From an uncultured Methanosarcinales archaeon (GTDB lineage Archaea > Nanobdellota > Nanobdellia > Woesearchaeales > UBA12501): a stretch of DNA of 64,000 nt. Within the stretch, counting starts at the first letter, position 1. Each line of letters opens with the position of its first letter. The notes under the pieces were generated by a model, which saw only the letters and a list, made by a program, of their open reading frames with translations, was not told where the DNA came from and did no database searches. Where the stretch lies: assembly GCA_964343705.1 (NCBI GenBank), contig CAYFJX010000004.1, positions 69,583 through 133,582 on the forward strand, written 5' to 3'. Shown here piece after piece: positions 11,305 through 61,282 of this stretch. The translations under genes were made by a program, and so were the position numbers.

Positions 11305-11363
11305 GTATTACATGTAATACGCTGTAATTTATATAGTTTTCTGTTTTTTTTTTAAACATTGTA

Positions 11364-12059
11364 CTAATGATCTCTATTTCGAGCAAGTCTGTGTACATAC
11401 CTGCTTTGCCGTCCTAAGGGGGAAATCTCATCTTCCTCTGGAAGGTCAATTCCTTTGTACAATAGTCTGACCTGCCTCATGCCTTTTCCTTGCTTGTGCA
11501 TCTCAAGAACATTAACATATACATCCCCCACTAAAACATGGGGCTGCCAATGCACATCACTGTTTGCTTTAGTACCGGGGAATAAAATATCTCCTGATGG
11601 TTCGAGATGTCCTCTATGCAGGTGGAGAAATGCTCGACCACCGGGTTTTAAAACTCTATACGCTTCACGTATGGCACGTGCTTTGTCTACAACATACATT
11701 AATGCATAGGATGAGTATATGAGGTCAAAACTTCTTTTTGGAAATGGTAAATGGTGTGCATCAGCCTTAATACACTGTGCATCTTTATTTTGGCCATCAG
11801 GGTACGCAATATCAACACCTATTCCTTGCAGTCCTGGGAATTTCTTAACAAGGTCAGCAAGAGAATTTGCCTCACCGGTTCCTATGTCAAGAACACGTGG
11901 TTTGTCTATGGTTGCAAGAAATGCTTCCATGCGGTCTAAATTTTCTATACCGAGCGATTTATGTAATGTTGTCCATCCACGTTCTCGTCGTACGCCTGCA
12001 TCTTTCATCATTGCAATGCGTCGTTGGTTATCCTTTTCAAATTGTGTGTATGCAACCAT
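11364..12059 (-). CDS. Class I SAM-dependent methyltransferase
   Basis: Motif I is VLDIGTGEANSL, followed by IGVDIA and an acidic-loop pattern, consistent with a Rossmann-fold MTase. Confidence 0.7.
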   Translation of the reverse strand: MVAYTQFEKDNQRRIAMMKDAGVRRERGWTTLHKSLGIENLDRMEAFLATIDKPRVLDIGTGEANSLADLVKKFPGLQGIGVDIAYPDGQNKDAQCIKADAHHLPFPKRSFDLIYSSYALMYVVDKARAIREAYRVLKPGGRAFLHLHRGHLEPSGDILFPGTKANSDVHWQPHVLVGDVYVNVLEMHKQGKGMRQVRLLYKGIDLPEEDEISPLGRQSRYVHRLARNRDH

Positions 12060-12123
12060 ATCTGGTGGGGTGATTTCATCATATATAAGCTTTTCTATTT
12101 GTAATCACTAAGAAGTAGGTATT

Positions 12124-13809
12124 TTAGGCACTAAGTTTGTCGTCTTCATCTTCTTCAATATCATCAGCAAGTCGATCGAGGACAGTGGTTTCATCTTCTT
12201 CAGGGTGTTCATCCTCGGGCACTTCAGTATCTCCACCTGATGTATCTTCTATCTCACTATGTGCAGCCAATACGTGTCCAACCTCGTATTGCTCGGATCT
12301 TCTTTTAATGGCAGGCAAGGAGTGCATACAATGTCGTGCTCGTTCATCTAGAATGATGTATTTTCCTCCAAGAAATTCAGACGTCTCTGCTCGCTGCACA
12401 GTTGGATGGTGGTATCTATGCTTTAACATTGCAATAATCCCCTGGTCTAACTCGTCATGTGAAACAAATTTTCCTTCCTTGCTTGGAACCATACCGCCCC
12501 TTTGTAAACTGTACTTTGGCAAGAGCTCAAGTAATTCTCTACTCATCCATGGTTGGGGTGACACATGATACAATCCTTCAGCTTCTTGTATAAGTGTAAG
12601 TGCATCACCAAGTGGCATGTAAGCAAGCTCATCAAGATCAGGCAGCATGTCCTCTAAAACTTCTTCAACATATTGACCACTAAAATATAATGCACCCATA
12701 AACTCAACTGGTCTGCAACTAACAACAGCATCCTCAATTAAGCTTTCAGTAAACCGAACGCGGGACCGCTGAGCCTTATGGTGAACCAAATCAACAACAT
12801 CTGAAATAGTAAGTACATACATCTTCTGTATTAGCCCTTCATATGCTTCAACCAGTTTTGCCTTCGGTACAACAATCTTATCAGTTGGAGCAACAAACCC
12901 CATGACTTCTTTAAGTGCTTTGCGCATTGCCAGGCCAGAAATACCTGTGTCAACAGCATATTTTAACCTACGTGTTATCTGAGTGTATTCACTTGAATCA
13001 ATCAAATGTCCATAGTTGTCAAAAATCTCCCCACTGAGTTCACGTTCTTCTTCTATGTCATCAACAATGTCATCATCCATCTCACCCATACGTTCTTGTA
13101 ACTGCTTGTCTAATGAGGGGTCAGAAGTGCTTAGTGTCTTGTCAGTTTGTGCATGTGGATTCTTCGGTTTTCCAGCTTCTTCAATCGTTGCCCGCCTTTG
13201 TATTCGTCGTTCATTGTAGAACGTACTAACATCTAATTCACCTTCAACCTTTTTTTGTATTGTTCGTATTCTATCACCTTGTAAAAATTGCCGCTTCCGC
13301 AATGTAACTTGTTCTGTTGAATAAAAAAGAATTAATTCTGGATAGCTAGCATCCAAGACTTCCTCTGTGCCATTCCAGTGCTGGTATGTCCGAGGTATGC
13401 CAAGAGCAGCTGCTGCCACATCCTCAAGTAGAAAATCAAACTGGTCTGGACGTATCTTTCCATCTGTGACTGACAGTACTTCTCTTTCACCTAAATAATG
13501 AATACGCTCCTGCAAAAGACCAGGGGGGATTGGTACAAACCCAAGCTTAGGGATTTTCAAGGAATCAATTGGGATACTTTTCAATTGTTTTCCTAGTCCA
13601 GGGCTAAATCGTGTCAGTGCTGCCATTACTGATGCAGCATAATATGCAGTAGGCTTTCCAGGTTCTCGCAGCGCAAAAGCACCTTCAACATAAGGCAGAA
13701 GACCTTGCTCCTTTAATGTTTCTTCAGTTACTGTTTCCAGCGGCTGCCGAGAGTAAGCAAAACTCTTTGCATTGACCCCTGTTATAGTAACATCTAAAAT
13801 TTCTCCCAT
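12124..13809 (-). CDS. Hypothetical protein with a strongly acidic C-terminal tail; partner of the upstream GHKL ATPase
   Basis: 561 aa with no known motifs. C-terminus is DTSGGDTEVPEDEHPEEDETTVLDRLADDIEEDEDDKLSA. It is 93 nt downstream of the GHKL gene on the same strand. Confidence 0.5.
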   Translation of the reverse strand: MGEILDVTITGVNAKSFAYSRQPLETVTEETLKEQGLLPYVEGAFALREPGKPTAYYAASVMAALTRFSPGLGKQLKSIPIDSLKIPKLGFVPIPPGLLQERIHYLGEREVLSVTDGKIRPDQFDFLLEDVAAAALGIPRTYQHWNGTEEVLDASYPELILFYSTEQVTLRKRQFLQGDRIRTIQKKVEGELDVSTFYNERRIQRRATIEEAGKPKNPHAQTDKTLSTSDPSLDKQLQERMGEMDDDIVDDIEEERELSGEIFDNYGHLIDSSEYTQITRRLKYAVDTGISGLAMRKALKEVMGFVAPTDKIVVPKAKLVEAYEGLIQKMYVLTISDVVDLVHHKAQRSRVRFTESLIEDAVVSCRPVEFMGALYFSGQYVEEVLEDMLPDLDELAYMPLGDALTLIQEAEGLYHVSPQPWMSRELLELLPKYSLQRGGMVPSKEGKFVSHDELDQGIIAMLKHRYHHPTVQRAETSEFLGGKYIILDERARHCMHSLPAIKRRSEQYEVGHVLAAHSEIEDTSGGDTEVPEDEHPEEDETTVLDRLADDIEEDEDDKLSA

Positions 13810-13902
13810 CTGCCATAAGCTCCTGTGTTACACTACTTGTAGTGCTTCATGCTATAAATAAATACCTATTCTTGAATGCTAGCGGACTATACATTTCAAT
13901 CT

Positions 13903-16455
13903 CTAAACACGAACATGACCTAAAATAATATTTTCAGACTCAGCAACCCTTTGCATTGCATCAGCTTGATCCAGGCCACCTTGTATTAATGTGGCAACTG
14001 CATTGGTGAGAGGAAGATAGCCTAAGCTATCAAGCACAGCACTTCGGTCACCAGGCGTTTGTAACGCTTCCCCGGCATGGTCTAGCAAACGGTTGTACAA
14101 CATGTTTACATGCTTCCGTAACATACGAGGGTTGTTCACATTACCAAACATAACTCCACTTTTAAACCCAAACTCTACTAACTCTACGTCATCATCTGTG
14201 GTATATATTGTTGGATCAACTACAGTCATGTGTACTGACGCAGTTTGTTTTCCATAACAGAAAGAGCTTATTTCTAGACCATGTGCCAAAATTGCTGGTA
14301 CACCCTTGTTTGCTGAGCCAATCTGACGTAATCGTTGTCGAACTGCACTAATGTTTTTGCGTGTGTGTTCAGCAATCTCCTCTGCTGTAAGCACTGCATC
14401 AAGAGGGTATTCCTTTCCATTAAACACAACTCCTGTTGCATTAATTGCTCCTTTGTCAATAAGATCTTGAACATAGCGTTGTGTAAAATTATCACTGTAG
14501 GCACGCACTATGTCCAGTACAGCTTCATCTCCTTCTGTGTTTACATCTTCTAACTCATACCCTATAAGATTGCCTACTCTGTCCTCTTCAGGATCAAGCT
14601 CAACACTTGTTTTTCCTTTAAATCGTCGCTGATATGAAACAGGTAACTCATCAGTTAATGTTCCTTCTGCAAGAAGATGCACCAACTCTCCAAGATTTTC
14701 TTTAGGGAAGGTGTAAATTGGATGACTTCGAACTCTTGAAACATTCTTAACATACTTTGGCAGCTTTTTTGCTTTCTTAAGCTTTTCAATTTCTTTTGTT
14801 GCACGAGCCATGTGTGTTCTTCTAAAGTTAAATTCATCTGTTCCTTCTGGAACAGGCACATGTCGCACTCCTTCATGCAGAGTTACTTTGCCATCAAGGG
14901 TTTCAAGTAATGCTGACAAGTCCTTTCCTAAATATGTTTTTTCTCGGTATGGTTCAATAAGTCCTGCTTCTGCAAACCGTTTCAGCATCCACGCAGGATA
15001 CGTACGTGCTGTTGCATCACGCTGTTCATACAATCTATTGGGGTTTATGCTTTTTCTTGCTCTTTCTTGTTCTGGGGTTGTTTGTCCAGGTAAAATATTT
15101 GCCAGTCGTCGTCTTTCTCTACCACGTCCTATTTCCAGGTCAGTAAAAGCAGAAACTGCAGCTTCAGTTTTCTCATGGTCTTCAGATTCAAGTTTGCTAA
15201 AAGCAACAGCCATAACACCAAGTCTTCCAAGTACCCTGCGTGTTTCAGCTGGTCGATAGGTGGCAAGATCAAATGCTCTTGAAGTAGGATTAACATACAC
15301 AATACGAGCGCTTTCAGAAACATACAAAACTTTACCTGCATGCTCTTCACTGAACACAACTTTAAAAGGTGATCCTCCATCCATAAACTCACCCATCATA
15401 GCTTCTACAGTGGGTAAGTAATCAGTTAGTACTTCCTTACACTTTGCAATTTTGTTTTCTTTTACTTTGGCACTCATGTCACGGCGAGCTTGACGTAGAA
15501 CATCATGAATAATATCGCGTACTGCTCTTCCTTTTGCTGAAGCAAAAAACTGTTCACGGTCAATGGTGATGTACTCTTCTAAATCATCTACATGGACAAC
15601 ACCATAGATCCTGCTTTTAAGATCTTGTTCAGGAATAAGATCTTCGTTTTTTCCTCCAACAGCTCTATCGTTAACTTTTGTAAAAAGACCATTATCATCT
15701 CCAAGTTTTTTTGAAGCAAGAAAAATTGTTCCATGTACGTGGCCTGCCGCGGGATCATGAACATCAATGACATATTCAAGGGGTATCCCAAGATCTCGTC
15801 GTGGAACAAGATTATCATTCACGTATATCTCTGCTAACTTTCGAGGAAGTTCATCACGAAGAAGTCGCATTAAATTCATTTCATCAATGTATGTTTCGTC
15901 ATTGAGATCCATATCAAACAGTGTCAGGCGAGCACCATGTTTTTCAGGATTACATGGTTCCCTAGATACAACCAGTCTTTTTTCAATAGTGTCAGCATCA
16001 TCAAATGTTTCAGTGACTGTGTAGTGAGTACCTTCTTTCCATGACTCAACAGTCACTCCACCCCAAAATGCTCGTATACCAAGAACAGCAACACCAAATT
16101 TTCCTGTTCTCTTTCTTCCTTCTGGAGACAAGATTTCTTCTTTTTTGACACTATCGCCAATTCTTACAAATGATGTAAGACCTTCAACATCCATTCCTCT
16201 TCCGTTACCTTCAACAATCACCTTTCCTTCATCTTGATGCAGCCAGACTTTGTATACATCTGCATCTTCATCATGCTCATTTGAACCAAGTTCAAGAATA
16301 ATACGTTTAGGATGTTTAAAAAGTGATTTTCCCACAGTGACCATGAAGTCATCACCATAGGTGCGTTGGATAACTACATCTTCAAGTGTTTGATCTCCTG
16401 TGTTTGCAGCTGTGACTGCTTCTTCATGAGCCATGGATCTTAGTGTAGTAAGCAT
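13903..16455 (-). CDS. GHKL-superfamily ATPase (Bergerat fold; MORC/HSP90-like), 850 aa
   Basis: N-box ILELGSNEHDEDAD, G1 box VEGNGRGMDVEGL and G2 box GKFGVAVLG, in the canonical order within the first ~150 aa. There is no HisKA domain. Confidence 0.6.
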   Translation of the reverse strand: MLTTLRSMAHEEAVTAANTGDQTLEDVVIQRTYGDDFMVTVGKSLFKHPKRIILELGSNEHDEDADVYKVWLHQDEGKVIVEGNGRGMDVEGLTSFVRIGDSVKKEEILSPEGRKRTGKFGVAVLGIRAFWGGVTVESWKEGTHYTVTETFDDADTIEKRLVVSREPCNPEKHGARLTLFDMDLNDETYIDEMNLMRLLRDELPRKLAEIYVNDNLVPRRDLGIPLEYVIDVHDPAAGHVHGTIFLASKKLGDDNGLFTKVNDRAVGGKNEDLIPEQDLKSRIYGVVHVDDLEEYITIDREQFFASAKGRAVRDIIHDVLRQARRDMSAKVKENKIAKCKEVLTDYLPTVEAMMGEFMDGGSPFKVVFSEEHAGKVLYVSESARIVYVNPTSRAFDLATYRPAETRRVLGRLGVMAVAFSKLESEDHEKTEAAVSAFTDLEIGRGRERRRLANILPGQTTPEQERARKSINPNRLYEQRDATARTYPAWMLKRFAEAGLIEPYREKTYLGKDLSALLETLDGKVTLHEGVRHVPVPEGTDEFNFRRTHMARATKEIEKLKKAKKLPKYVKNVSRVRSHPIYTFPKENLGELVHLLAEGTLTDELPVSYQRRFKGKTSVELDPEEDRVGNLIGYELEDVNTEGDEAVLDIVRAYSDNFTQRYVQDLIDKGAINATGVVFNGKEYPLDAVLTAEEIAEHTRKNISAVRQRLRQIGSANKGVPAILAHGLEISSFCYGKQTASVHMTVVDPTIYTTDDDVELVEFGFKSGVMFGNVNNPRMLRKHVNMLYNRLLDHAGEALQTPGDRSAVLDSLGYLPLTNAVATLIQGGLDQADAMQRVAESENIILGHVRV

Positions 16456-16583
16456 CCTTAAAAAGATTCATGGTTTCTTGTATATACATGGGCTTGTTTG
16501 TATATGTTGGTAGTTCTTTTTCCACTTTCTGAGCCATGTTTGGAGAAACCTTTATAAACCAAATTCTTTCCCGAACAATGTAT

Positions 16584-16711
16584 CCCTCCATAGCTCAATT
16601 GGTAGAGCGCAGGGCTGTAGATAAACTCACCCACCGACTAGGCATATAGCCATGAATGAAAGTGGGACAGCCGATACCTTGAGGTTCCCGGTTCGAGTCC
16701 GGGTGGGGGGA
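16584..16711 (+). tRNA. tRNA-Tyr (anticodon GTA) with a 55-nt canonical intron (37/38) at 16621..16675
   Basis: Acceptor ccctcca/tgggggg (C1:G72). D arm gctc-aattggta-gagc. Anticodon stem caggg/ccttg with loop ctGTAg|intron|a. T arm cccgg-ttcgagt-ccggg. Discriminator A. Confidence 0.75.
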
Positions 16712-16856
16712 CTCTTATTTTTTTCTTATCGTTCCGAGAGGTTGAGCTTGCGAAACCTCTCATTGCATGCTAGGATGGTAAGGAGTGCAATCTCCTTACT
16801 CTTTGGTGGGGGGACTCATTTTCTTCTTATGGTTTTAAATACCATTACTAAATTCT

Positions 16857-18167
16857 GTGGACTATATGGCTGAGGATATACTAGAAGGTCGGTTAAAAGC
16901 ACTAAAAGGCAGCAGAGCTAGAAGACAGTTCCTTGAAGGACTATATGAAGAAGTGTGTAGACTAGAAGGTAATTTTAATTTTCCTTACATTGCTGTTGAA
17001 GCATTAGGTCAATTAGTACTGGATCTTACTAAGAAGCGGGAAAGAGGCAAGACCCCAACAGCAAAGAAGACGACTGTTGTGCTTAATACAACTCACTCTT
17101 TTAGATCCCAACCTGTTTTTGATACGCACCACAATCGGTTTGTATACTTTGCTCATTTTCTTGGAAACCAACACAGGCTTTACAATGATTCCTCTGGTAA
17201 TCCTGACCCCTCACCTTTGGAGGCAGTAGCACAAGTAGAAGGTAGAACCACCCGATACACGTTTCTAACTCCAGAGGGCTTACAGCAAAAAATATTTGAA
17301 ACAGATATGTATGAACCAGTACGGAGGATGCCCTCTTCAGTCTTTGCATCATCAGTAGGTGTAGCAACAAGAAAAGCAAACGCCAATGGCTCAATCAATT
17401 TCCGAAACGAATTATATGCCTTTGGCACTAGTCATAAAGGGAAAGATGTTCTTGTCTTTTACGCCCCAGGAGACAAATGCTACTTTTTTGATTTGTGGGG
17501 TGAGATGTTATTTGAGCGACTTAGTAATGAAGAGGTAATCCAACAGCGCAAGATACAAAAAATGCTTGCCATACAGGATGAGATGGAAGATCTTGATAGT
17601 CTTGATAGTAGCTCTGAGCTGCTTTATGCACAACTGAAAGAAGAATGGTCAAAAGATCCCCAAGAGTTTGCAACTCATTATGGTAGGACTTATGTTATAA
17701 CAGGGGAAGTACAAGGAACTATGAATGAGTTGGGAGAGGTTGGTTTTGCACACTTTCGAGACCAACACTTCCTTTCTCGAGTCCATGGAGCACGTGAACA
17801 TGCAGGTAAAGAAGCAAAGCTAGTTATACAAGGTCCATACATGACTGTTCATCATGAAGGGGAGATGATTAATGCTCATCGTCTTGGAGGTATCATTTAT
17901 TACACTAAAACAATGCGGCGGGTTAACAATGCTCACCTTGTTAATATCAGAACTGTTGGTAACACAAAACAACTCAAGCGTGATATCTCTGGTTCTCTTT
18001 ATCATTTCTCTATGCGTGCGTTTAAGAAAGAGTATTCTGGGGACCTTAAAGAAGCGCAAGCAGTGGGGATTATTGTTGACACACAACGAGAAAAGTATGA
18101 AGCTCTTATTATAGAAAAAGATGGTGCTTTTGTTAGTGTGCCATTGCAACTACATGCTGTGTATTAA
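16857..18167 (+). CDS. Hypothetical protein
   Basis: 436-aa ORF with no recognisable motifs. The true start may be internal. Confidence 0.4.
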   Translation: MDYMAEDILEGRLKALKGSRARRQFLEGLYEEVCRLEGNFNFPYIAVEALGQLVLDLTKKRERGKTPTAKKTTVVLNTTHSFRSQPVFDTHHNRFVYFAHFLGNQHRLYNDSSGNPDPSPLEAVAQVEGRTTRYTFLTPEGLQQKIFETDMYEPVRRMPSSVFASSVGVATRKANANGSINFRNELYAFGTSHKGKDVLVFYAPGDKCYFFDLWGEMLFERLSNEEVIQQRKIQKMLAIQDEMEDLDSLDSSSELLYAQLKEEWSKDPQEFATHYGRTYVITGEVQGTMNELGEVGFAHFRDQHFLSRVHGAREHAGKEAKLVIQGPYMTVHHEGEMINAHRLGGIIYYTKTMRRVNNAHLVNIRTVGNTKQLKRDISGSLYHFSMRAFKKEYSGDLKEAQAVGIIVDTQREKYEALIIEKDGAFVSVPLQLHAVY

Positions 18168-18177
18168 TAGAATGCAT

Positions 18178-20484
18178 TTAACGTGCTTCAACCCAAGCTT
18201 GATATTGATCATGGCGTTCTTTTACATCAGCCATCAATGAGGCAACTGCATCTTGTTTATCACCAGGATGACCAGGAATAAAGTTTGCAGCATTGGTGTG
18301 GTTTACAACTATTAAATTATGTTTTCCTACTGGGAGAATTAAAGAAGGTGTTTCTTGGGCACGCTTCATGATTTCATCTGACCCCACATAGGTTTTCTCA
18401 TGGCTTGCTATGTTCCTAATAGAGTACACTGCAAAGGGTCCGTCTTCACCATTTATTACAGGTGTTGTTTGTAGCCATGCCTGAAGTTCAAGAGGATTTC
18501 CAACCTGCCCAAGATCAGGTGCAGTTACATAAAATATATGTCGTTTGCGTTGATTTCCAATTGTTTGCTTATACACTTCTCCTTTCTTAAGTATGTCATC
18601 TACTCTCCCTCTTGTTATACCTTTTGCTTCACGGAGCTCTTTTGCTGTTACAAGCACTAATCCTTGATGATAATGTATTGCTTGAACCCTTCCAGTAGAC
18701 AGTGGCTCCTCGAGAGTTGGCTCGTGTTGTATAAGAGTGCCATCTGGTTCCATCTTCTGCCTCCAGCGCTGAAATTGTTCATAGCGCTGTCCAACATCAG
18801 CTAAAAGATCCTCAACAAATCCTCCTCTTTTTGTGTTGGTTGATACAAAGTGGCGAGCATTGTCTTTGTTAACAATGAAATATTTGCTTGCTCTTTGTTC
18901 TGAGTGTGTACCAATCACTCTTATTAGGTCTTGTTCAAAAACTTTTTCTAATGCTTCTACAGTTTTCATTCCTGGGATAGTGCCAAGTCTCACTGTGTTA
19001 TATAATGCAAAGGGTGTGTCTATACCAACAAAACGATTTGCCTTAACTTCGGAGAGAAGCTCATTATAACTTGATCCATGGCGTTCGAAAACAGCAGGAA
19101 GTATTTCAGGAGTGAGAAAGTAAACACGTATTGGTCGTTTCTCACCAAACTCTTCAGCATACAATAATCCTCCTTCAATAAGCCTTTGTAATTCCTTGCG
19201 GTTTTTGGTGTCCTTAATTTTGTGGAATACAACGTGGGTTATAGGGAAAAATCCATCTTGGTAACATGCGTCAACCTCATTGTTAAGTGATAAGGTTATT
19301 GAGGGGTTAGTTTTAGGTGGTTCCGGTTCTGTATTTGTTTTTTCTTCAAGACTTGCTGCTTCAGTAGGGGTAGCTGGTATACGAACTGCTGACAAAGCAG
19401 ATATTTCATCTACCTCTCCTGCATCATTCTGTTCTAGTTCTTCATCATGTTGCTCTTCATCAAGTCCTGCTTCATATGCTTCTAATGCTTTTAATTTTTC
19501 CCACAAGTTTTTCCTACTGATTCCAAGGAGTTTGGCAGCTTCTGCTTTTCTTCCTCCTGTGTGGGCGAGTGCAATTTTGATATAGCTAAGCTCTGCCTCA
19601 CGCATAACTTCTACCAACGGTCGAAATCCTCGACGTCTTCTGTATGTTTGTCCACCTGTTAAATCAAGAGAGTTTTGGTCAAAAATAATATGTTGCGCTC
19701 TGAGGCTTTCTCCGTCACTCAAGAGCACTGCCCGTTCAATAATATTTTCTAACTCCCTAACATTCCCACCCCACTCATAATTTTGTAAAATCACAGCTGC
19801 GTTTCCATCAATGCTAGTGACTCTTGTGCCATATTTTTTATTATTCTTAGCAACAAGATATGCGGCAATATCCAAAAGGTCACTTCCCCTATCTCGTAAG
19901 GGAGGTACATGTAATGGGAATACATTCAGTCGGTGAAATAGGTCTTGCCGAAACGTCCCTTTTTCAATTTCCTGCACAAGATCCTTATTTGTTGCTGCAA
20001 GCACACGTACATCAATAGATGCTGTTTGAGTTGCACCAACGGGGACTACTTCTCGTTCTTGTAACACATTAAGCAGCTTTGCTTGCATGTCAGGACTCAT
20101 TTCTGAAACTTCATCAAGGAATATAGTGCCTCTATCAGCTTCTCGGAAATGTCCTTTTCTTGCTTGACTTGCACCAGTAAACGCACCTTTAACATGACCA
20201 AACAATTCTGATTCCATGATTCCCTCAGGAATTGCAGGGCAATTTACATGGACAAACGGATTTTTCTTAGTTTGATTAGCTCCACTAGCATGTAATGCTT
20301 TAGCAATCAGTGTCTTCCCAGTTCCTGTTTCACCTGTAAGCAAAACACTAGCAGGCTTGCCTGCAAGAATGTTAAGAAATTGGTATAACTGCAGCATTGC
20401 AGGGCTTTTTCCTACAATCTCAAGATCTCCATTAATTTTGTAGATTCCCTGCTCAGCGTCATAATTGGCAATATCTCCTGTCAT
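18178..20484 (-). CDS. Sigma-54-interaction-domain AAA+ ATPase (bEBP-like, GAFTGA motif) + Fis-type HTH + duplicated C-terminal domain
   Basis: Walker A is LLTGETGTGKTLIAKA. ESELFGHVKGAFTGAS is the GAFTGA signature. Also has RVLAATNKDL...FRQDLFHRLNVFPLHVPPLRDR and the HTH GGRKAEAAKLLGISRKNLWEKLK. The last ~300 aa form two repeats of about 130 aa (..ADVGQRYEQFQRW.. / ..ADVKERHDQYQAW..). Confidence 0.75.
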   Translation of the reverse strand: MTGDIANYDAEQGIYKINGDLEIVGKSPAMLQLYQFLNILAGKPASVLLTGETGTGKTLIAKALHASGANQTKKNPFVHVNCPAIPEGIMESELFGHVKGAFTGASQARKGHFREADRGTIFLDEVSEMSPDMQAKLLNVLQEREVVPVGATQTASIDVRVLAATNKDLVQEIEKGTFRQDLFHRLNVFPLHVPPLRDRGSDLLDIAAYLVAKNNKKYGTRVTSIDGNAAVILQNYEWGGNVRELENIIERAVLLSDGESLRAQHIIFDQNSLDLTGGQTYRRRRGFRPLVEVMREAELSYIKIALAHTGGRKAEAAKLLGISRKNLWEKLKALEAYEAGLDEEQHDEELEQNDAGEVDEISALSAVRIPATPTEAASLEEKTNTEPEPPKTNPSITLSLNNEVDACYQDGFFPITHVVFHKIKDTKNRKELQRLIEGGLLYAEEFGEKRPIRVYFLTPEILPAVFERHGSSYNELLSEVKANRFVGIDTPFALYNTVRLGTIPGMKTVEALEKVFEQDLIRVIGTHSEQRASKYFIVNKDNARHFVSTNTKRGGFVEDLLADVGQRYEQFQRWRQKMEPDGTLIQHEPTLEEPLSTGRVQAIHYHQGLVLVTAKELREAKGITRGRVDDILKKGEVYKQTIGNQRKRHIFYVTAPDLGQVGNPLELQAWLQTTPVINGEDGPFAVYSIRNIASHEKTYVGSDEIMKRAQETPSLILPVGKHNLIVVNHTNAANFIPGHPGDKQDAVASLMADVKERHDQYQAWVEAR

Positions 20485-23061: not shown

Positions 23062-23096
23062 AGGTTTTTTTTACCTTTTTTATTTTCTATTTTTCT

Positions 23097-23399
23097 TTAT
23101 GATTTCCACAACAACTCAAACTGTTTTCTAAAAGAATCAGCCATTTCATTATTTCTAATAAGAACCATCATGGGATTAACACCTGCAGTGGTTGAAATTA
23201 GAACATTCTTGCCAATAATACAAATCTCCATTGGCACACGGAACTTCTCAGGCAGCATTTTACACTGACACCCTTTGATTTTCTCAATCTTGTCCTTTTC
23301 AGTAGATGGTTCATTAAATAACATCTTTGTCTTGCCAACATTGGCATTTCCAAGTATAAGTTGTATGGCGAGCGACACCGGGTGAGCTCCCTCTTGACG
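23097..23399 (-). pseudogene. Truncated TrmB-like regulator fragment (C-terminal domain only)
   Basis: ADSFRKQFELLWKS matches the C-terminus of the 8896..9630 TrmB (AESYRKHFELLWKIA). The ORF lacks the HTH half and is only 93 aa. Confidence 0.5.
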
Positions 23400-24246: not shown

Positions 24247-25608
24247 TCACGCAACTCTTCGTTCAGCTTCTGAAACAGCACGTCTTAGTACTCGATGCGG
24301 TGCTGTTTCAGGGTTGGCAAATACGTGTTGGATATCTCCCCAGCGGTACACTTGTAGTATTGCTTTATACACCTTCAGTTCATCGATGGGGCTGGCATCA
24401 GGTGCTTTTTCCTTGATTAAAGTATTGATTCTGCTAGTGGATTTTGCATACATCAATGCTAGGTTTCTTTGTGTTACTGGTGTGTCTTCATTCCACAACT
24501 CAGGTGACCAGTATTCATCTTGTTCACCATTAAAATATTTGAAAATTCTTTCTTTCATCTGAGCTGCTGAGTAATTACTTTCTACTTTTTCCTCTAACTG
24601 TGCTGTTATTGCATCAACATGAGGTGCAAGGTCTCCAAATTGGTATACTTCCACACCACCTACCATTGTTCGTTCTGAGGTAATACCACGAACTGCAAGC
24701 TCAGGAGCAACGTGCTTTGTCATTGGAGGATGAAACCACTCCTCAATATTGAAGTACTTCTTTGCATTCTTAAATTCGCCACTTTTCATACTTTCTTGAG
24801 CAGCGTCATATGCTTTTCTTAAAAAGCTTTGAACAGGAGAATGTCGAGGGAAAACTACAAAACTAGCAGCAAGATAGTGTGGAGCTCGCATCTCATACAA
24901 TGCTACTGCTGCTTCCATTTCTTGGGCCAGCGCCACTTCTTGCTCCGGAGTTAGGAGAGGTGCTTTTCCTGCTTCTCGCAACCATAATTTCACCAGGTCT
25001 TTAGTTACTGCAGCTCCTTCTTCATCTTGTCTTTGCCGGCTTTCCTTAAGTATCTTACTTTCCGGGATATTAGTCTCTGCAGCATACATTGATTCTGGAA
25101 TTTCCCCTTCATACCCCAGTGACTTCATGACTTCTTTAAGTTCTTCTTTGCTTATATCAACAGCTTCATCTTTTTCAGCTTCGTGTTCTTCATAAAAACT
25201 TTCAAGTTCATCACGAGTAGTAAATACTTGCGAAGGAGTGAAACCTTCTGCAGTCTTTTTTTCTCGGAAGTCAACTATGCTTACTCCTTTTTTTTCATAT
25301 GCAACTGTTACATGGTAGCTGTTTGGCCCTTTTTTTTTCTTGACTGGTTTTGCATTGAACATGGCTCCAGCAACAAACATACTATCACCATCTTGCATGC
25401 TGACCACAAGTGTGTCTCTAGTAAGTTGGTCAACTTGCACTTCTAAAGTGGCATACACTAAGAAATTCTTTGCATTATCAGAAGGCAGAGGTAATGTGGC
25501 CACGTATTCCTCGCCACTTTTTTGAAGGGGGATAGTGAGGTCTCCAAGAATTTTCAAATAGTCGCTTCTGCTTTGTACTGGCTCCATTATCTCAGCAGGC
25601 ATTCCCAT
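24247..25608 (-). CDS. Hypothetical protein (453 aa)
   Basis: Long ORF. Contains a short stretch resembling sigma-70 region 1.2 (LWLREAGKAPLLTPEQEVALAQ), but no further sigma regions. Confidence 0.4.
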   Translation of the reverse strand: MGMPAEIMEPVQSRSDYLKILGDLTIPLQKSGEEYVATLPLPSDNAKNFLVYATLEVQVDQLTRDTLVVSMQDGDSMFVAGAMFNAKPVKKKKGPNSYHVTVAYEKKGVSIVDFREKKTAEGFTPSQVFTTRDELESFYEEHEAEKDEAVDISKEELKEVMKSLGYEGEIPESMYAAETNIPESKILKESRQRQDEEGAAVTKDLVKLWLREAGKAPLLTPEQEVALAQEMEAAVALYEMRAPHYLAASFVVFPRHSPVQSFLRKAYDAAQESMKSGEFKNAKKYFNIEEWFHPPMTKHVAPELAVRGITSERTMVGGVEVYQFGDLAPHVDAITAQLEEKVESNYSAAQMKERIFKYFNGEQDEYWSPELWNEDTPVTQRNLALMYAKSTSRINTLIKEKAPDASPIDELKVYKAILQVYRWGDIQHVFANPETAPHRVLRRAVSEAERRVA

Positions 25609-54994: not shown

Positions 54995-55502
54995 TTTTTT
55001 TTATTCTCTTTCCACTTCTTTTTTTTCTTAGTAGTAATCTTCAAAATCGTAGTATGTGTTGTCGTCTAATTCGTGTTCTGCAAGCTCTTCATCAAACTCG
55101 TAATCTATTAGCTTGTCAACACGTGGATGGGCAATCCATTGTTCCCACTCTTCACGTCGCATTGGCATAGTTTACACCCCCATGTAATGCCTTAATTAGG
55201 GTGAATAAAATATAATAAAGTGATGTATATATGGTATAACCAAGGTTTCCTAAACTTTAGGTGATGGTCCTTTTTACTTCCTCAATAAATATCAATCTTT
55301 CGGAACAGACACCGCTATGAAGTGATGGTTGACCTTACCTCGCAGAATTCTTGCTGTAGAACGCTTAATTCGCTTTTTGTTGTTTGAAATTTTTGCGAAC
55401 TTATCTTCAACTCTTTTGGCTCAATTTGGAGAGTGTTACACATTGCTTTTGTAATGAAGCAACATTTTGTTATATGGTCTGCATACCCTCAACATTTTGG
55501 GA

Positions 55503-55570
55503 ATCGGGGTGCCTCCGAACAGACTTCAAGGCAGTGCTACCCCTCAGAAAGACTCTTGGGACACACCCCT
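55503..55570. repeat. REP-B element, half copy (matches 7845..7912 with 3 mismatches in 68 nt)
   Basis: atcggggtgcctccgaacagacttcaaggcagtgctacccctcagaaagactcttgggacacacccct. Internal ggggtg/cacccc inverted repeat. Confidence 0.7.
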
Positions 55571-55695
55571 TTATTTTGTGAGAAATTGCGTCAACCAGAT
55601 CGCGAGAGTTGTTGTTATTCTTAAGTAATTAAAAAAGAAAAACTTATAAATAATCAGCACTTTTCAATACCAAAAAGTATGATTGAGGTATACTC

Positions 55696-55845
55696 ATGTC
55701 ACAAAAGCAATATATCATAACAAAAAAGATAGCCAAACAAGGCGATAAGGCAGTTATCTGTATTCCTGCTTTGCTTCAGGAAGAATTAAAACCTTCAACA
55801 GTTGTGAAAGTAACTATTGACGTAATTAAGGAGGCAGGGCAATGA
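55696..55845 (+). CDS. AbrB/SpoVT-like small DNA-binding protein (49 aa), first gene of a three-gene operon
   Basis: MSQKQYIITKKIAKQGDKAVICIPALLQEELKPSTVVKVTIDVIKEAGQ is a swapped-hairpin-like pattern. Its stop overlaps the next ATG (ATGA). It is too short for the ORF track. Confidence 0.45.
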   Translation: MSQKQYIITKKIAKQGDKAVICIPALLQEELKPSTVVKVTIDVIKEAGQ

Positions 55846-56897
55846 ACGATAATACAAACGACACTTCATTAGTTCCTGTTGATCCTTGGCAAGGAATTTT
55901 GGGACAAGCTTATGATGGTAGTATGGAAAAAGTTTTAAGTGCACATTTTCGCAATGGTTTAGAAGAACTTACTGTTGACGCAAGCACATTAGAGCGACAA
56001 AAATCAAAGCTGGAAGAGTCACGCAGAAAAGATGCTGAAATGCATAAAGTTGCTGTGCTAACTGAAAAAGCAGATTTCAAAGAAAAAAATAGATTGCTTG
56101 CACGATTAACTCGTAAAGTAGTTTTTATAGAACCTGATCATAAACCTTCACTTGAAACGTCTGTTTATGAAAAGGCAGTTGAAGTTGGGCAAACATTGAC
56201 AGAATATCTTGATAATCTTAGAAAGTTTGCTTCACAGTTTTCTGTGCTGGGAGAAAGATATCAAAAACTCTGTGAACAACAAACTGAATTGGAACTGAGA
56301 AGAGAACAGATAGAACGGCGTGCTTCAACATATGAGAATGAAGAAAGATTAACAGCCGATTTTATTGGCAAAGTAACAGGTTATTCTAGTTTAGCAGATG
56401 CTGATCAGGATGCTTTGGCTCAATCTGTCAGAGAAGCGACTAATGGTGTTGATATTAGTGACGAAAATGTAAGAGAAATTTTTGTTCAACAGTTGAAAAG
56501 AGGACAGTTTACTTTGCGTCAAACCCATATTACTGACCAAGCTGATCATGAAGAGATAAGTATACGGCTTGCTTCTGTTTCCAGACAGTTGGAGGGAGTA
56601 AATAAAGATGCTGGAAGGTTGTGGGATCTATATAATCCTGCAAGGACCGAAGCTGTTCATTTAAGTGTAACATATCAGGAATTAAGTTCTGCTGCGGAAA
56701 CAGGAACAGCAATTTATGGTGTTGCACAAATGCTTGGGTCAGCAAGAGAATTATGTGAATCTGCCAGAGAAATGCAAGATGCCTTAGAAGCTGCAGTAGA
56801 AGGGCAGTTGGAAGTATTAAGTGCGTTTAGGGGAGTAAATGATGGAAGAGGATCTTATCAATTATCAACTGGAGACACAAGGAGGGGTGAAGAGTAA
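55842..56897 (+). CDS. Coiled-coil hypothetical protein (351 aa)
   Basis: Long heptad-rich central region. No catalytic motifs. Confidence 0.45.
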   Translation: MNDNTNDTSLVPVDPWQGILGQAYDGSMEKVLSAHFRNGLEELTVDASTLERQKSKLEESRRKDAEMHKVAVLTEKADFKEKNRLLARLTRKVVFIEPDHKPSLETSVYEKAVEVGQTLTEYLDNLRKFASQFSVLGERYQKLCEQQTELELRREQIERRASTYENEERLTADFIGKVTGYSSLADADQDALAQSVREATNGVDISDENVREIFVQQLKRGQFTLRQTHITDQADHEEISIRLASVSRQLEGVNKDAGRLWDLYNPARTEAVHLSVTYQELSSAAETGTAIYGVAQMLGSARELCESAREMQDALEAAVEGQLEVLSAFRGVNDGRGSYQLSTGDTRRGEE

Positions 56898-56898
56898 A

Positions 56899-57912
56899 AT
56901 GGATGAAGTAAGATTTCCTACGATTGTTAGTGTGATTAGTGAAAAGTTTGGTGCTTATACCAAGGCTTTAACTGAAGCGCAGAACTTAGCTGGCAGAGAC
57001 GAGTTAGATGCTGATGAACGAAGAAGATTTGATGAGTTGATGCAACATTTAAGAAAAGATGAAGCGACTGCTGGTTTGCTTTCCTCTGAGCAGCGTGTTG
57101 GTCTTGATGCTGTTTTTGATGCTCATGTACAATTATCAAATGTTCCTTTTCCTGCTTGTATCAGTAAGATCACCCAAAACTATGTTGTTTTGAATAATAT
57201 TAGGCCTGTTGATGCTGATGATACTGTTCTTTGGAGTCATCCTAAGCTGTATATTCCTAAAAACATTATTAAGGATGCGAATGGCAATCACGTTAATAAA
57301 ACCCCTTATGAGTGGGCTGTTTTTTTTGAACAACAAGAGCAAAATGGCTGGTTTTTACCAAGTCCTGCAGACACTTGTAACATTCTGGCTGTTTTGTTTA
57401 AAAATAGGGAGGATAAGGAAGTAAGAAGAGTGTTTATGCAGTATAAAGACCAAGGCTATGGTTCTGGCCTGCACGCTCAGAATGGCCTTGTTGATTTTGG
57501 TGTAAGGCAATTTATTCATTACCCTAATGCTGCTGATTTTGGTAAGTCGGGAAGTGTTAATGCTGGCAGGAGAAGAACTGCTTTAAGTTTTGACAAGTTT
57601 GTTTTGCGAAGTGAGAGGTTAGAGGATGCCTTGCGTGTTCCTGAAAAAGCAAGGTATGTTCGGCAGTGGAGTTGTTTAAAAGATCCTTCTGTTTTGGTTG
57701 AGATTGGAGAGGAGTATGGCAATCCTGCTAGGTTGTGGTTTCCTTGGAACAGAAAGAATAGTACAGGATATAACAAGAAAATGCTGGCCTGGGTTGGTCA
57801 CATCGCCGATATCTTCACACTTTATGCCAGCGGCAATCTTTCCTTCTATTATGCTACTCGTGGGGTACTTCAGGCGCCGCAGGCGCGCAAACGAAAAAAT
57901 AGTTCCACCTGA
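56899..57912 (+). CDS. Hypothetical protein (338 aa) with Cys...His...Asp order suggestive of a papain/transglutaminase-like fold (speculative)
   Basis: PADTCNILAV ... WVGHIADIF ... D. The ATG is 2 nt after the stop of the previous gene. Confidence 0.4.
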   Translation: MDEVRFPTIVSVISEKFGAYTKALTEAQNLAGRDELDADERRRFDELMQHLRKDEATAGLLSSEQRVGLDAVFDAHVQLSNVPFPACISKITQNYVVLNNIRPVDADDTVLWSHPKLYIPKNIIKDANGNHVNKTPYEWAVFFEQQEQNGWFLPSPADTCNILAVLFKNREDKEVRRVFMQYKDQGYGSGLHAQNGLVDFGVRQFIHYPNAADFGKSGSVNAGRRRTALSFDKFVLRSERLEDALRVPEKARYVRQWSCLKDPSVLVEIGEEYGNPARLWFPWNRKNSTGYNKKMLAWVGHIADIFTLYASGNLSFYYATRGVLQAPQARKRKNSST

Positions 57913-58397
57913 AATAAAGGTTAGGTAAATCTTTATAAACACCAGCAACTTCTTTATTTTTGTCCTCATTGCTCTACTTCTTTGGTGGAACGGCATGGGC
58001 TCTACACGTCTCTTTGCTAGCGCCTCTTATTCAAGAGGACATAAAATTCAACCACAACAGCAAATGCCTGAAGTGGTGGTGCTAGAAACAGCAAGGAGGC
58101 TACTTAAGGGCGGCCTGGCTCGGTTGCAGCAACAATAACTTCAACCTTAATGCCAACAACAATCTTAACAGCAATAATACTGCTCGTGGAATAGCCCTAC
58201 CTCAGCGAGGACTTTTCTTTAAACTATTTAAGAGAGTTCTCTTCCCAATCACTAAAGCTAGTTTTCAGTTCAATAACATCATTTTCGAGATTTTTCAGTC
58301 CATCCAAAAGCTCTTTATAGTCCATACATGTCAGGTATAAATTAGAACTTTTAAAATTTTCTTCTATTTATGTTATCTAGGGTAGCTACCTGCTAGA

Positions 58398-58485
58398 ATC
58401 AGCTTGCCGCTCAAGCTCTAACTTCTTAGCGATTGCAGCAGAATTATTACTTAGGTTGAAAGCATGTGTGATCTCGTCAGCAAGG
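58398..58485. repeat. 88-bp exact direct repeat of the rps7 3'-terminal coding sequence (second copy at 59036..59123)
   Basis: Identical 88-mer atcagcttgccgctcaag...ctcgtcagcaagg. Flanking codons at both copies encode SSR-stop using different codons. Confidence 0.8.
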
Positions 58486-58492
58486 TACTTGA

Positions 58493-58615
58493 CTATAGCT
58501 TACCTATTGCTTCAAGAATCTTTTCATGTCCTTTGACTAAACTCATAAATCGATCTAGTTCATGTGATACAATTTTATATGCTTCTTTATCTTTTAAATT
58601 CTCTGATTTTGCCAT
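58493..58615 (-). CDS. Small ORF (40 aa), possible antitoxin partner of the Fic/Doc gene
   Basis: MAKSENLKDKEAYKIVSHELDRFMSLVKGHEKILEAIGKL. Overlaps the 3' end of the Doc gene by 29 nt. Confidence 0.3.
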   Translation of the reverse strand: MAKSENLKDKEAYKIVSHELDRFMSLVKGHEKILEAIGKL

Positions 58616-58979
58616 GTTTTAACCACTCTTTTATTTCACTATCCTGATAGTATCTTTCTCTGATGCCAAGCATAACGCGTGCCTGTTTTGGGTTGTTTTT
58701 TACTGCAAAACGCGCCTTGTTTTTACGTAAAAATTCTTTTGTTACAATAAATGCAGTTCTTCGATTTCCGCTAGCAAAAGGGTGTTCTCTGATGAGACCC
58801 TTGCAAAGCACTACTGCTTTATCATACATGTCTCCTCTTTCTTGTTTGCACAAATTAATTACTTTGTTTAATTTTGATTTATTTAAAACTTTAGGGGAAT
58901 CTGCTTTTTTAGTTTTCAAAAAAGCGATTGCAAGTAGATTATATTCAATAATTCGTTCTGGTGTTGGGTAATAAAGCAT
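58587..58979 (-). CDS. doc: Fic/Doc-family toxin (death-on-curing)
   Basis: The Fic motif HPFxxGNKRTA is present as HPFASGNRRTAF. 130 aa. Its own TATA (tttataaa) lies about 27 nt upstream. Confidence 0.7.
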   Translation of the reverse strand: MLYYPTPERIIEYNLLAIAFLKTKKADSPKVLNKSKLNKVINLCKQERGDMYDKAVVLCKGLIREHPFASGNRRTAFIVTKEFLRKNKARFAVKNNPKQARVMLGIRERYYQDSEIKEWLKHGKIREFKR

Positions 58980-59005
58980 TATAAGAAATTAATAGCTAAA
59001 ACTCT

Positions 59006-59013
59006 TTATAAAT
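59006..59013 (-). promoter_or_regulatory. TATA box for the doc cassette
   Basis: Minus strand reads gatttataaagagt, 27-34 nt upstream of the doc ATG, inside the rps7-doc spacer. Confidence 0.4.
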
Positions 59014-59023
59014 CTTCTTTTCT

Positions 59024-59623
59024 TTATCGACTACTATCAGCTTGCCGCTCAAGCTCTAACTTCTTAGCGATTGCAGCAGAATTATTACTTAGGTTGAAAG
59101 CATGTGTGATCTCGTCAGCAAGGCAGTCAACCATTGACTTTTTTCCATTGAAACTTTTGTGGAATGAACCTTGTGCCATAACACGTAGTGCAAAATCAAT
59201 GCGTCGTTGTGGTGAGCACTCAACTGCCTTTGGGTATCGAGCTCCACCATATTCAATGGTGATGATCTCTTCTCGTGGTGCAGCGTTTTCAATTGCTTTT
59301 ACCAGTGCTTCAACAGGGTTCTTGCCTGTTTTTTGCTCAACTTTGATAAGTGCTTTTTTGAGAATGTCTGCAGCAGTAGCATACTTGCCGGTGATACGGC
59401 CAGAGCTTTTGAAGTGTTTTTTGCTCTTGTGACCAGGTACCATTAGTTTGTTGATAAGTCGTTCAACAATAAATGACTTTGATTTGTGGAATCTGCTTCC
59501 TGCGTATTTTCCAGAACTCTTTGGTACAATACGTGGTTCTAAACAGATGTAATCTTTAAGCCCAAGGTCTTCTACTACGATATCTGTGGTAGGCCACTTG
59601 TTGAATGCTAATACTTCAGTCAT
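59024..59623 (-). CDS. rps7: 30S ribosomal protein S7 (uS7)
   Basis: 199 aa ending KAVECSPQRRIDFALRVMAQG. Typical archaeal uS7. Confidence 0.85.
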   Translation of the reverse strand: MTEVLAFNKWPTTDIVVEDLGLKDYICLEPRIVPKSSGKYAGSRFHKSKSFIVERLINKLMVPGHKSKKHFKSSGRITGKYATAADILKKALIKVEQKTGKNPVEALVKAIENAAPREEIITIEYGGARYPKAVECSPQRRIDFALRVMAQGSFHKSFNGKKSMVDCLADEITHAFNLSNNSAAIAKKLELERQADSSR

Positions 59624-60022: not shown

Positions 60023-61282
60023 ATGAATAAGCGTATTAAGATACAAGACAACCGTATTCGAGCACAAAGGCAAAATGGAACTACAGAGGGTTCAGTGCTC
60101 ATTGACTTTTTCAAGGAAAAATGGGGTTATTTTGCAGCAACTGGAGCTCTTATTGCATTACTAGCTGGTGGAATATACGCTCTTGGGGGAAAATCACCAT
60201 CAGAGGTGTGGGATGAACAATTCCCAGCAGTGGCAACTGTGCAATGTGGTGATTCAACATGTCTTGATATTAGTGATTATGTCAAAGGAGAGAATCTTAT
60301 TCAAATTCCACAAGGGGATTATTCAATATTCTTTGTAACCGATGTGCACTCAGACGCTGGACAACTTAAAGATATATTTGAACAAAATGATCTTGTAGCA
60401 CGCTTAGAATCAGGTGATTATGTTGTTATACAGGGAGATATGATTGATACAAAATTTATCTACACACGAGTTCCAGGACCAATTCCTGGAAAACACGTTG
60501 TACAACGAAAAATTGATGACGACACTGTAGCATTTTATGAAGTTAGTCAACCAAAAGAAATGGGCCAAGACAAAGCAGTAATAAAATTCTTGCAAGCAGT
60601 ACAAGAACAGCACCCACAAAATCTTGTTGTACTTCGGGGTAACCACGAAGAAATTGCAGTACAATACTACAAGCGGATTGCAGAAATTGCAGACCGTCAT
60701 GATCTCTCATTTGAAGACGCAGTTACTGCAGTTGCAAAAGGTTTAGTTGGTGTGCCTCAGGATTCGATGCTAGCAAATGAAAACGCGCGCATGCCAAAAG
60801 CTCCTGGGTTATTTCGTTCACAACTTGACCTTCTTAACTTTGACTTTGTCACACGAATGAGTGAAGCTGACTATGACTTTCTTGAAGCATTGCCTCATGG
60901 AGTTGTTTTTGGCAATGGTGTTGCAGCATTCCACGCCAAATGTCCACTGAGTCTTGAAGATCTTGAAGGTGTGTACCGAGGACGAGAATTAGATCGTTCT
61001 TCATACAAAACAACAGCATCAGAGTATACAACCTTGTGGCAACGTGAAGGTTCATGTGATCTTCCAGGTGTAACACTAGTACTTAATGGTCATTCAGAAC
61101 CACAAGAATTCAAGCATGGATACGATGCGGAACGAGGTATTGCAATCCAAAAAGATCGTGTTATCTTTGCGTCAGGAACACATGGTGTACATTCAAAAGA
61201 ACAGATTGTAAAACTTAAGGGTGATCAATCCTACACTCCTGCAGCATTGCAATCAGGTCAAGAACTTGTAGCAGTACAATAA
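60023..61282 (+). CDS. Calcineurin-like metallophosphoesterase with an N-terminal TM anchor
   Basis: Motifs FFVTDVHSD, GDMID and VLRGNHEE (D-x-H, GD-x-x-D, GNHE). Confidence 0.6.
   Translation: MNKRIKIQDNRIRAQRQNGTTEGSVLIDFFKEKWGYFAATGALIALLAGGIYALGGKSPSEVWDEQFPAVATVQCGDSTCLDISDYVKGENLIQIPQGDYSIFFVTDVHSDAGQLKDIFEQNDLVARLESGDYVVIQGDMIDTKFIYTRVPGPIPGKHVVQRKIDDDTVAFYEVSQPKEMGQDKAVIKFLQAVQEQHPQNLVVLRGNHEEIAVQYYKRIAEIADRHDLSFEDAVTAVAKGLVGVPQDSMLANENARMPKAPGLFRSQLDLLNFDFVTRMSEADYDFLEALPHGVVFGNGVAAFHAKCPLSLEDLEGVYRGRELDRSSYKTTASEYTTLWQREGSCDLPGVTLVLNGHSEPQEFKHGYDAERGIAIQKDRVIFASGTHGVHSKEQIVKLKGDQSYTPAALQSGQELVAVQ

Follow-up and report, generated by a model that had tools for sequence, protein, structure and literature searches.

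The gene for ribosomal protein uS7, rps7, stands next to a second copy of its own 3′ end in the archaeal contig CAYFJX010000004.1, and a small cassette for a putative toxin of the Doc family lies between the two. All coordinates given here are those of the window, the whole stretch of 64,000 nucleotides that was analysed. The working gene is located at 59024–59623 on the minus strand (199 codons; Pfam Ribosomal_S7, 129.7 bits, E=9e-38), and is the last gene of its transcription unit, abutting variable DNA. Near its end, the 88 bp at 59036–59123 (copy R, minus strand), which comprise the third base of the Cys166 codon and codons 167–195, recur at 58398–58485 (copy L, minus strand) as a direct repeat identical over 88/88 bases. 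The identity ends sharply, with not one base of extension on either side; a repeat finder lists the pair as 104 nt at 93% identity with a spacing of 638 nt. Because the longest match in shuffled flanks was only 12–17 nt, a chance origin is excluded. Both copies are followed by four codons reading Ser-Ser-Arg-stop, and the repeat ends at the codon boundary directly before them: copy R continues into the tail AGT AGT CGA TAA (T1, 59024–59035, minus strand), copy L into TCT AGC AGG TAG (T2, 58386–58397, minus strand). The tails encode the same residues, of which S198 and R199 do not vary across 39 S7 proteins, and differ at 6/12 bases and in 4/4 codons. Copy L has no start codon and in-frame stops just upstream, and is therefore a dead, non-coding fragment of rps7. 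The original prediction, made from the sequence alone, had described both the exact duplication and the recoded tails, and on these points it proved correct.

The duplication is confined to this pair. Searches of both strands of the window (k=15, 20, 30) returned no third copy of the 88-mer, and a degenerate third rps7 end was likewise absent from the window by k-mer, blastn-short and tblastn searches. No other gene in the window has a duplicated end flanking an insert; rps7 is alone in this. A fold z-score of +0.75 gave no indication of a structured RNA in the repeat. Elsewhere, 23079–23171 resembles the C-terminal 31 residues of the TrmB-family open reading frame (ORF) at 8896–9630 (45% identity, an internal stop, 13.5 kb apart), and is a possible pseudogene remnant.

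The 550-nt interval between the copies (58486–59035) contains the T1 codons, a TATA box, the Doc ORF, an overlapping 40-aa ORF and a 7-nt spacer, all on the minus strand, and no other gene, as had been predicted. The TATA box TTTATAAA (59005–59012) is located 25 nt upstream of the Doc ATG. In alignment A1 it lines up with the TTTAAATA box that homologous Doc cassettes from other genomes carry; this box precedes Doc in the loci aligned with the window. The Doc ORF (58587–58979, 130 aa) matches Pfam Fic (PF02661, 30.7 bits against a cut-off of 24) and, barely above threshold, NCBIfam TIGR01550 DOC_P1 (38.7 against a cut-off of 38.65). Its motif HPFASGNRRTAF (HPFASGNRR at residues 66–74), invariant in 33 homologues, fits the catalytic pattern H-x-F-x-x-x-N-(K/R)-R, in which a basic residue replaces the Gly of canonical Fic. 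In a family profile match it aligns to HCFYNANKR of PDB 9vzc, a ‘Death-on-curing family protein’; a single-sequence search of PDB with the Doc protein found no direct relative, the family profile alone giving a match. Judged by these family and motif matches, the 130-aa ORF belongs to the Doc subfamily of Fic/Doc toxins. The partner ORF (58493–58615, 40 aa) overlaps the 3′ end of Doc by 29 nt and has no Pfam or NCBIfam match. An ORF of 40–52 aa overlaps the Doc 3′ end in every Doc homologue locus inspected (7 other genomic contexts), and the peptide is conserved where compared (alignment A1). Small, co-oriented, overlapping and inherited together, the two genes have the layout of a type II toxin-antitoxin system, in which the 40-aa product is the presumed antitoxin. 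The spacer (58486–58492) runs from the stop codon of the partner to the displaced rps7 fragment, and forms the distal junction of the insert.

A search at E≤1e-5 gave ~500 homologues of Doc, the named ones being annotated as Woesearchaeota or Nanoarchaeota. Their genomic contexts are unrelated to one another: one stands after a thymidylate-synthase-like gene, one after a 197-aa gene, and others elsewhere. The Doc and 40-aa ORF pair with its own promoter is a self-contained, conserved module. Scanning 44 window ORFs (39 of at least 180 aa; 18 without any Pfam match) gave no Pfam match to an integrase, transposase or reverse transcriptase; the occurrence of the module in many contexts and the lack of an integrase among these ORFs support the predicted minimal toxin cassette. 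At further Doc cassettes (L006, L007/L008, L181/L182 and L183/L185), no flanking repeats above the shuffled background were detected. A virus or plasmid source was sought in IMG/VR, which contained neither the S7 C-terminal pattern nor a relative of Doc.

The host of the window is a Woesearchaeote, a DPANN archaeon. Its S7 is 100% identical to a database protein, P0001, that is present on several contigs, and after P0001 the nearest S7 relatives in a database search, at ≤76% identity, are from Woesearchaeota/Nanoarchaeota. Archaeal traits of the window include promoters apparently of the TATA type and an intron-bearing tRNA; the latter is a 128-nt Rfam tRNA match at 16584–16711 (51.6 bits), missed by ARAGORN and presumably an intron-containing archaeal tRNA. 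The arrangement of rps7 and cassette is base-for-base identical (100% across the locus) in the contigs L001–L003, which are separate assemblies of three runs of ENA project PRJEB17505. Their names (k127_...) suggest to us a MEGAHIT assembly with a k-mer of 127, longer than the 88-bp repeat. A local tandem duplication or an assembly artefact could have made the second rps7 end, with the cassette unrelated to it, and an exact repeat with copies only 638 nt apart would fit such an origin. Because the three assemblies are identical and the implied k-mer is longer than the repeat, an artefact is not credible. Furthermore, this explanation cannot yield the same SSR-stop in four different codons, and six further genomes, which come from other studies, share this architecture, as described below; we consider it extremely improbable, and the doubt that the original prediction had raised about the second copy is thereby answered.

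Close relatives indicate which of the two gene ends is the original one. In four loci whose S7 is 75–76% identical to that of the window (L009–L012), the gene order is IleRS, a 69-aa ORF, rps7, a 42–46-aa ORF ending ...YYDFD..Y, an 86-aa gene and a ~160-aa gene. The window carries orthologues of all of these genes, with the 86-aa and 170-aa neighbours in synteny, and by orthology and synteny the ancestral downstream neighbour of rps7 is the 46-aa ORF at 55028–55168 (minus strand). Compared to the 68–176 nt that separate this ORF from rps7 in the relatives, the distance in the window is 3.85 kb, and everything that this lineage has gained behind rps7 by insertion lies on the near side of the 46-aa ORF. 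The rps7 tails of the relatives, TCA AGC AGG TAA (L009/L010) and GCA AGC AGA TAA (L011/L012), are of the codon type of the displaced T2, whereas T1 differs from them in every codon. By this comparison, the displaced fragment is the original rps7 3′ end, and AGT AGT CGA TAA came with the cassette as a substitute gene end. T1-like tails (AGT AGT AGA and AGT AGT CGT) exist in other Woesearchaeota rps7 genes, which makes it plausible that T1 derives from the rps7 of another lineage. Thus the tail codons of the relatives, together with the adjacency of rps7 and the 46-aa ORF, argue for the predicted element that carries its own gene-3′ replacement and displaces the original end.

Two further insertions distinguish the window from its closest relatives, and neither is bounded by repeats. 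The first, at 60023–61282, places a 419-aa metallophosphoesterase between the 67-aa ORF and rps7. The second is a separate 3.2-kb insertion behind the displaced end (55169–58385), with ORFs of 49, 351 and 357 aa that have no family match and with repeats resembling a diversity-generating retroelement (DGR); no rps7 fragment was found at its far side. The DGR-like pair is located directly behind the displaced rps7 end. Its template-like repeat (58112–58193), 82 nt and AAC-rich, is downstream of an Rfam RT-16 RNA match (57965–58108, 71.7 bits), and the variable copy (57786–57867) is located at the 3′ end of the ORF at 56839–57912 and differs from the template at 25 positions, of which 17 are template adenines and 8 are not. 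The 44 ORFs scanned include no reverse transcriptase, and the pair is probably a decaying or trans-served DGR. No connection between these repeats and the rps7 duplication was found.

The recurrence of displaced gene ends was assessed in 165 additional rps7 loci whose gene end is complete, drawn from species-representative genomes and Joint Genome Institute (JGI) metagenomes, and was counted among the 126 of these with at least 1 kb downstream of rps7. Displaced rps7 ends are present at 6/126 other Woesearchaeota loci (L026, L059, L103, L106, L115 and L129), which by S7 identity represent at least three lineages besides that of the window and belong to genomes from other studies. Each of the six has one or two extra copies of the last 15–28 codons of its own rps7, downstream and on the same strand; there are 8 displaced copies in total, and 7 of the 8 keep the stop codon at the same position. 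The DNA enclosed measures 1–3.4 kb per unit, and most units carry toxin-antitoxin-like genes, a few other genes being enclosed as well. L026 and L059 hold nucleotidyltransferases with a small partner, the second unit of L026 consisting of a nucleotidyltransferase and a 131-aa partner without family match; L106 holds HEPN and MNT genes, L103 and L129 a DUF6036 nucleotidyltransferase with a winged-helix protein in an AbiE-like pair, and L115 a PIN protein with a 74-aa partner. Relatives carrying the duplication without a toxin had been named beforehand as evidence that would count against the prediction, and the opposite was found, since the duplicated rps7 ends bound other toxin-antitoxin-like cassettes. 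A ribosomal protein gene had also been regarded as an unusual target compared with tRNA genes; in this phylum rps7 is instead a recurrent one.

As a control, duplicated C-termini were sought among the 1130 genes in these loci, and were found for rps7 and for one neighbour in L115 only. Nucleotidyltransferases are the most frequent families among 148 ORFs downstream of rps7. The duplicated arm at rps7 varies from 45 to 100 nt, a spread that joints made by homology would be expected to show and a single fixed joint would not; all events other than that of the window are older and diverged, and the edges of their arms are blurred. Tandem arrays are present at L026, L103 and L115. At L103, a newer unit stands in front of an L106-type unit, and the flank behind the displaced end of L103 is the same as the flank behind the working gene of L106; arrays therefore grow at the gene end. 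These results suggest that the rps7 end acts as a shared docking site across lineages of the phylum, with arrays building up behind it.

A related Doc cassette occupies the end of a different gene. In one population (L175–L180), a Doc and 40-aa cassette, its Doc 64% identical to that of the window, is located between the working and the displaced 3′ end of a gene for a 249-aa membrane protein (2734–3940 in L175/L179; also in L176–L180). The displaced end, ~172 nt long at ~85% identity, carries an annotation as a 66-aa ORF. Relative to its 249-aa target the cassette runs antisense; the topology is the same as in the window and the target sequence is unrelated. On the L176 scaffold, the displaced copy is precisely where a run of N falls. 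That an unrelated gene shows the same topology argues against a fixed attachment (att) sequence, and the mechanism is therefore probably not specific to the rps7 sequence.

At L115, a 116-nt unit is common to both displaced rps7 copies (91% identity) and includes 50 extra bases that are not from rps7 and contain a 12-bp inverted repeat. This hairpin arm was considered as a general signature and rejected, as it is absent from the other 184 loci. At 9900–19800 of SDBV01000017.1, L115 has an island between the convergent rps7 and a permease-methyltransferase gene, in which 3′-end copies of both are interleaved: two of rps7, and two full and one partial of the permease-methyltransferase gene. Their order differs from that expected for independent insertions at each gene end, and no simple model accounts for it.

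We further analysed the loci for enzymes and targets of known types of integration. Besides the window ORFs, 19 proteins of the six displaced-end cassettes and their flanks include no integrase, transposase or reverse transcriptase; the common families of the 148 ORFs downstream of rps7 do not include an integrase family; and none of the 126 rps7 loci has an integrase-bearing element at the same site within the 3–10 kb searched. Of the two things that the original prediction had proposed to look for, no integrase turned up among the window ORFs scanned and no further 88-mer within the 64 kb. There is no IntI beside the array, the flanking genes being the metallophosphoesterase, IleRS and small ORFs. 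A tRNA or tmRNA target was rejected, given that ARAGORN reported none in the window and that the intron-bearing Rfam tRNA is 42 kb away. As in att-type integration, the insert has exact 88-bp direct repeats on both sides, and rps7, although given a substitute tail, remains intact; as in a cis-mobilisable element (CIME), these att-like repeats enclose no recombination genes. The insert consists of Doc and the 40-aa ORF only, and thus encodes no integrase. Features of a transposon, insertion sequence or casposon were also lacking: no inverted repeat ≥20 nt was found in the cassette or at the insert ends, there are no terminal inverted repeats and, among the window ORFs scanned, no transposase, and the duplication is 88 bp.

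These observations bear on a second explanation, in which a staggered break or a transposition-like step would have produced an 88-bp target-site duplication, the extra SSR-stop being left from an earlier stay at the same position. The sharp repeat edges that exactly flank the insert, and the end of the repeat on the codon boundary just before the terminal four codons, would be expected from such a step. It is disfavoured by the lack of a transposase or casposase among the window ORFs scanned and of inverted repeats (≥20 nt) at the insert ends, and by the length of 88 bp, which is far beyond known target-site duplications; those of casposons are 14–15 bp. In addition, the lengths vary between loci, the same rps7 codon boundary would need to be hit twice, and the recoded tail is not accounted for. 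We regard a target-site duplication as improbable.

The end state to be explained is thus an rps7 body, the 88-nt core, a foreign SSR-stop, the cassette, the core again and the original tail. The insert measures 550 nt including four rps7-type terminal codons, and is located 12 nt before the end of the essential rps7; the dead fragment behind the cassette represents the original 100-nt gene end, core plus ancestral-type tail. In the reading that we favour, the incoming DNA would have carried its own rps7 3′ end directly ahead of the cassette, and because the foreign tail encodes the same conserved residues, this would have been a real rps7 end and not a chance sequence. Entry would then, most simply, have occurred by a single crossover across the homologous arm, of the Campbell type, from a circular form or its equivalent. 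Such a crossover would duplicate the arm and keep S7 intact, and would need no enzyme encoded by the cassette. The conserved rps7 end could in this way serve as a shared docking arm across lineages. Recombination between the same two repeats, 638 nt apart, would be expected to remove the cassette as well. The predicted pop-out chromosome would read from the rps7 body (...GGTTGACTG) through the 88-mer into TCTAGCAGGTAG, and the predicted 638-bp circle from ...GCTATAGTCAAGTA through the 88-mer into AGTAGTCGATAAAGAAAAG. Upon loss of the cassette, the labile partner would be gone and the stable Doc would persist, imposing a penalty on deletion; such a penalty may be the reason why surviving cargo is often toxin-antitoxin-like.

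The comparison of the two copies constrains this scenario. With 0/88 differences in the core and 6/12 in the tail, uniform divergence is impossible, and the core must either have been homogenised or have come from a donor strain of the same species. Homogenisation could have proceeded by conversion or by repeated crossover between the two copies, in which case the tail, at the outer edge of homology, would persist as a fossil of an earlier donor lineage.

Homology-arm entry through host recombination, with retention by toxin addiction, is favoured over a dedicated integrase, at what we would call an even chance of being correct. The reasons are that no recombinase accompanies any cassette scanned, that the arms differ in length (45–100 nt at rps7, ~172 nt elsewhere), that the arm can be an unrelated gene, and that perfect identity over 88 bp far exceeds what a site-specific core needs. 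An alternative is that the insert is an integrase-less cis-mobilisable element, or the deleted stump of a larger element, moved by a tyrosine recombinase acting in trans, from another element or the host XerA, in which case the rps7 end would function as attB and the 88-mer would be the block of att identity. Direct repeats and an element-borne gene end would be as in e14 at icd (PMC13626634) and in archaeal 3′-distal elements (PMC6563490). The repeated use of rps7, strongly enriched over other genes, the tandem arrays of L026, L103 and L115, and the conserved L115 arm with its inverted repeat beside both displaced copies also fit this model. It is weakened by the lack of an integrase in the cassette proteins and window ORFs scanned and among the common families downstream of rps7, by the differing arms of 45–100 nt, and by the same Doc cassette family in the same topology at an unrelated target gene, where the arm is an unrelated 172 nt; as noted, however, the other events are old and diverged with blurred edges. 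The 88 bp also exceed the crenarchaeal att length of 29–69 bp, and by far the thaumarchaeal one, mostly <26 bp (PMC6563490). We treat a recombinase in trans, CIME-like or Xer-exploiting, as a serious alternative that is possible rather than probable.

Several points weigh against entry by host homologous recombination. To account for the sharp change from the 88/88 core to the 6/12 tail, either gene conversion or a same-species donor has to be assumed in addition. Strong enrichment at rps7 is equally expected from a site-specific system, and the L115 arm looks element-specific and fits site-specific recombination better. A trans-acting integrase or the host XerA may be encoded elsewhere, the searches having covered 64 kb of the host genome. 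No free, plasmid- or virus-borne copy of the cassette was found. Exact look-ups of the 6 contigs with this S7 and the 8 with the neighbouring 86-aa gene gave either the occupied arrangement or contigs that were short or uninformative, and among these 6 + 8 there was no excised circle, empty site or polymorphic population. Lastly, the toxicity of Doc and the antitoxin role of the 40-aa ORF are putative.

Some other features of the window were recorded. A 76-nt non-coding element occurs twice on the same strand (7844–7918 and 55502–55576) at 93% identity; it matches no Rfam family and can form a GC-rich hairpin, and a Logan contig from the same sample terminates within it. A 768-aa ORF at 18178–20484 contains a bacterial sigma-54 activator AAA+ domain with a Fis-type helix-turn-helix (E=3e-65), and a 453-aa ORF at 24247–25608 has a Sigma70 region 1.2 match, neither of which would be expected on a contig from an archaeon. 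Two paralogous ORFs in tandem (908–1951, 347 aa; 2001–3071, 356 aa) are 31% identical, with a conserved N-terminus and no family match.

Toxin-antitoxin loci are among the most mobile prokaryotic genes and are often found outside recognisable mobile elements, and their movement is poorly explained. The locus in the window is young and perfectly preserved, its two junctions still intact; here a two-gene toxin module that encodes no recombinase appears to have entered the gene of an essential ribosomal protein, bringing a substitute end. If host recombination alone drives entry, a homology arm and an addiction module would together constitute a minimal form of mobile DNA, and it would be explained why defence and addiction genes gather at conserved gene ends near variable DNA in small DPANN genomes. 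More generally, DPANN archaea may have an integrase-free cassette system that uses portable host-gene 3′ ends, above all that of rps7, as attachment sites, moves between lineages by host recombination alone and forms addiction-held arrays. We put forward this generalisation tentatively, as possible rather than probable. Were it true, it would provide a functional analogue of the integron array without integrase or attC and a route for the spread of toxin-antitoxin genes outside mobile elements.

The arrangement can be compared with several known systems. Streptococcal CIMEs, and arrays of integrative and conjugative elements (ICEs) at the 3′ end of fda, are att-flanked, lack recombination genes in the case of CIMEs and grow by tandem accretion. 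The window cassette is likewise att-flanked and free of recombination genes at the end of a protein gene, with arrays at related loci; the streptococcal CIMEs are bacterial, derive from and depend on a cognate ICE integrase, and use fixed att sites. Cassettes of chromosomal integrons comprise one or two genes, often toxin-antitoxin, with the newest next to the docking site. The rps7 cassettes similarly stack at one site with the newest nearest the gene end (L103 compared to L106), but they have no IntI or recognisable attC, their repeat is the 3′ end of a host gene, and they have their own promoters. The minimal mobile elements of Neisseria carry integrase-free cargo (toxin-antitoxin, restriction) that is swapped at a fixed position in the chromosome by homologous recombination with conserved flanks. 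They share the lack of an integrase with the window cassette; theirs is a double-crossover replacement with no duplicated gene end, whereas the window cassette leaves one. The toxin itself resembles that of P1 Phd/Doc in its H-x-F-x-x-x-N-(K/R)-R motif and small overlapping partner gene, and differs in that the partner is downstream of the toxin, 40 aa long and without a match to Phd or another antitoxin family.

The architecture at rps7 is also that of elements at the 3′ ends of protein-coding genes. The e14 element is ~15 kb and encodes its own integrase. In the case of e14/phage 21 in Escherichia coli icd, the element supplies a substitute gene end that differs mostly at synonymous sites, the original C-terminal fragment stays at the far end as the icdC pseudogene, and excision recombines both copies (PMC13626634). 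The window insert is also located within the 3′ end of a housekeeping protein gene, with a substitute end and a displaced original; unlike e14 it measures 0.55 kb, has no recombinase and a DPANN host, and its two copies differ only in the terminal four codons, the other 88 nt being identical. Integrated elements of Thaumarchaeota are bounded by direct repeats; 14/68 are located in the 3′-distal part of a protein-coding gene, and a single site occupied in tandem has been seen. They are 2.6–98 kb long and integrase-defined, with att mostly <26 bp, and ribosomal proteins are not named as targets in the text of that study (0 occurrences of the term) (PMC6563490). The window insert shares with them the archaeal host, the 3′ end of a protein gene and the direct repeats, and differs in being 0.55 kb, integrase-free and bounded by an 88-bp repeat. 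With no defining enzyme or site of the e14, thaumarchaeal, CIME, integron or Neisseria families found, the architecture at rps7 is gene-3′-end integration in a new form.

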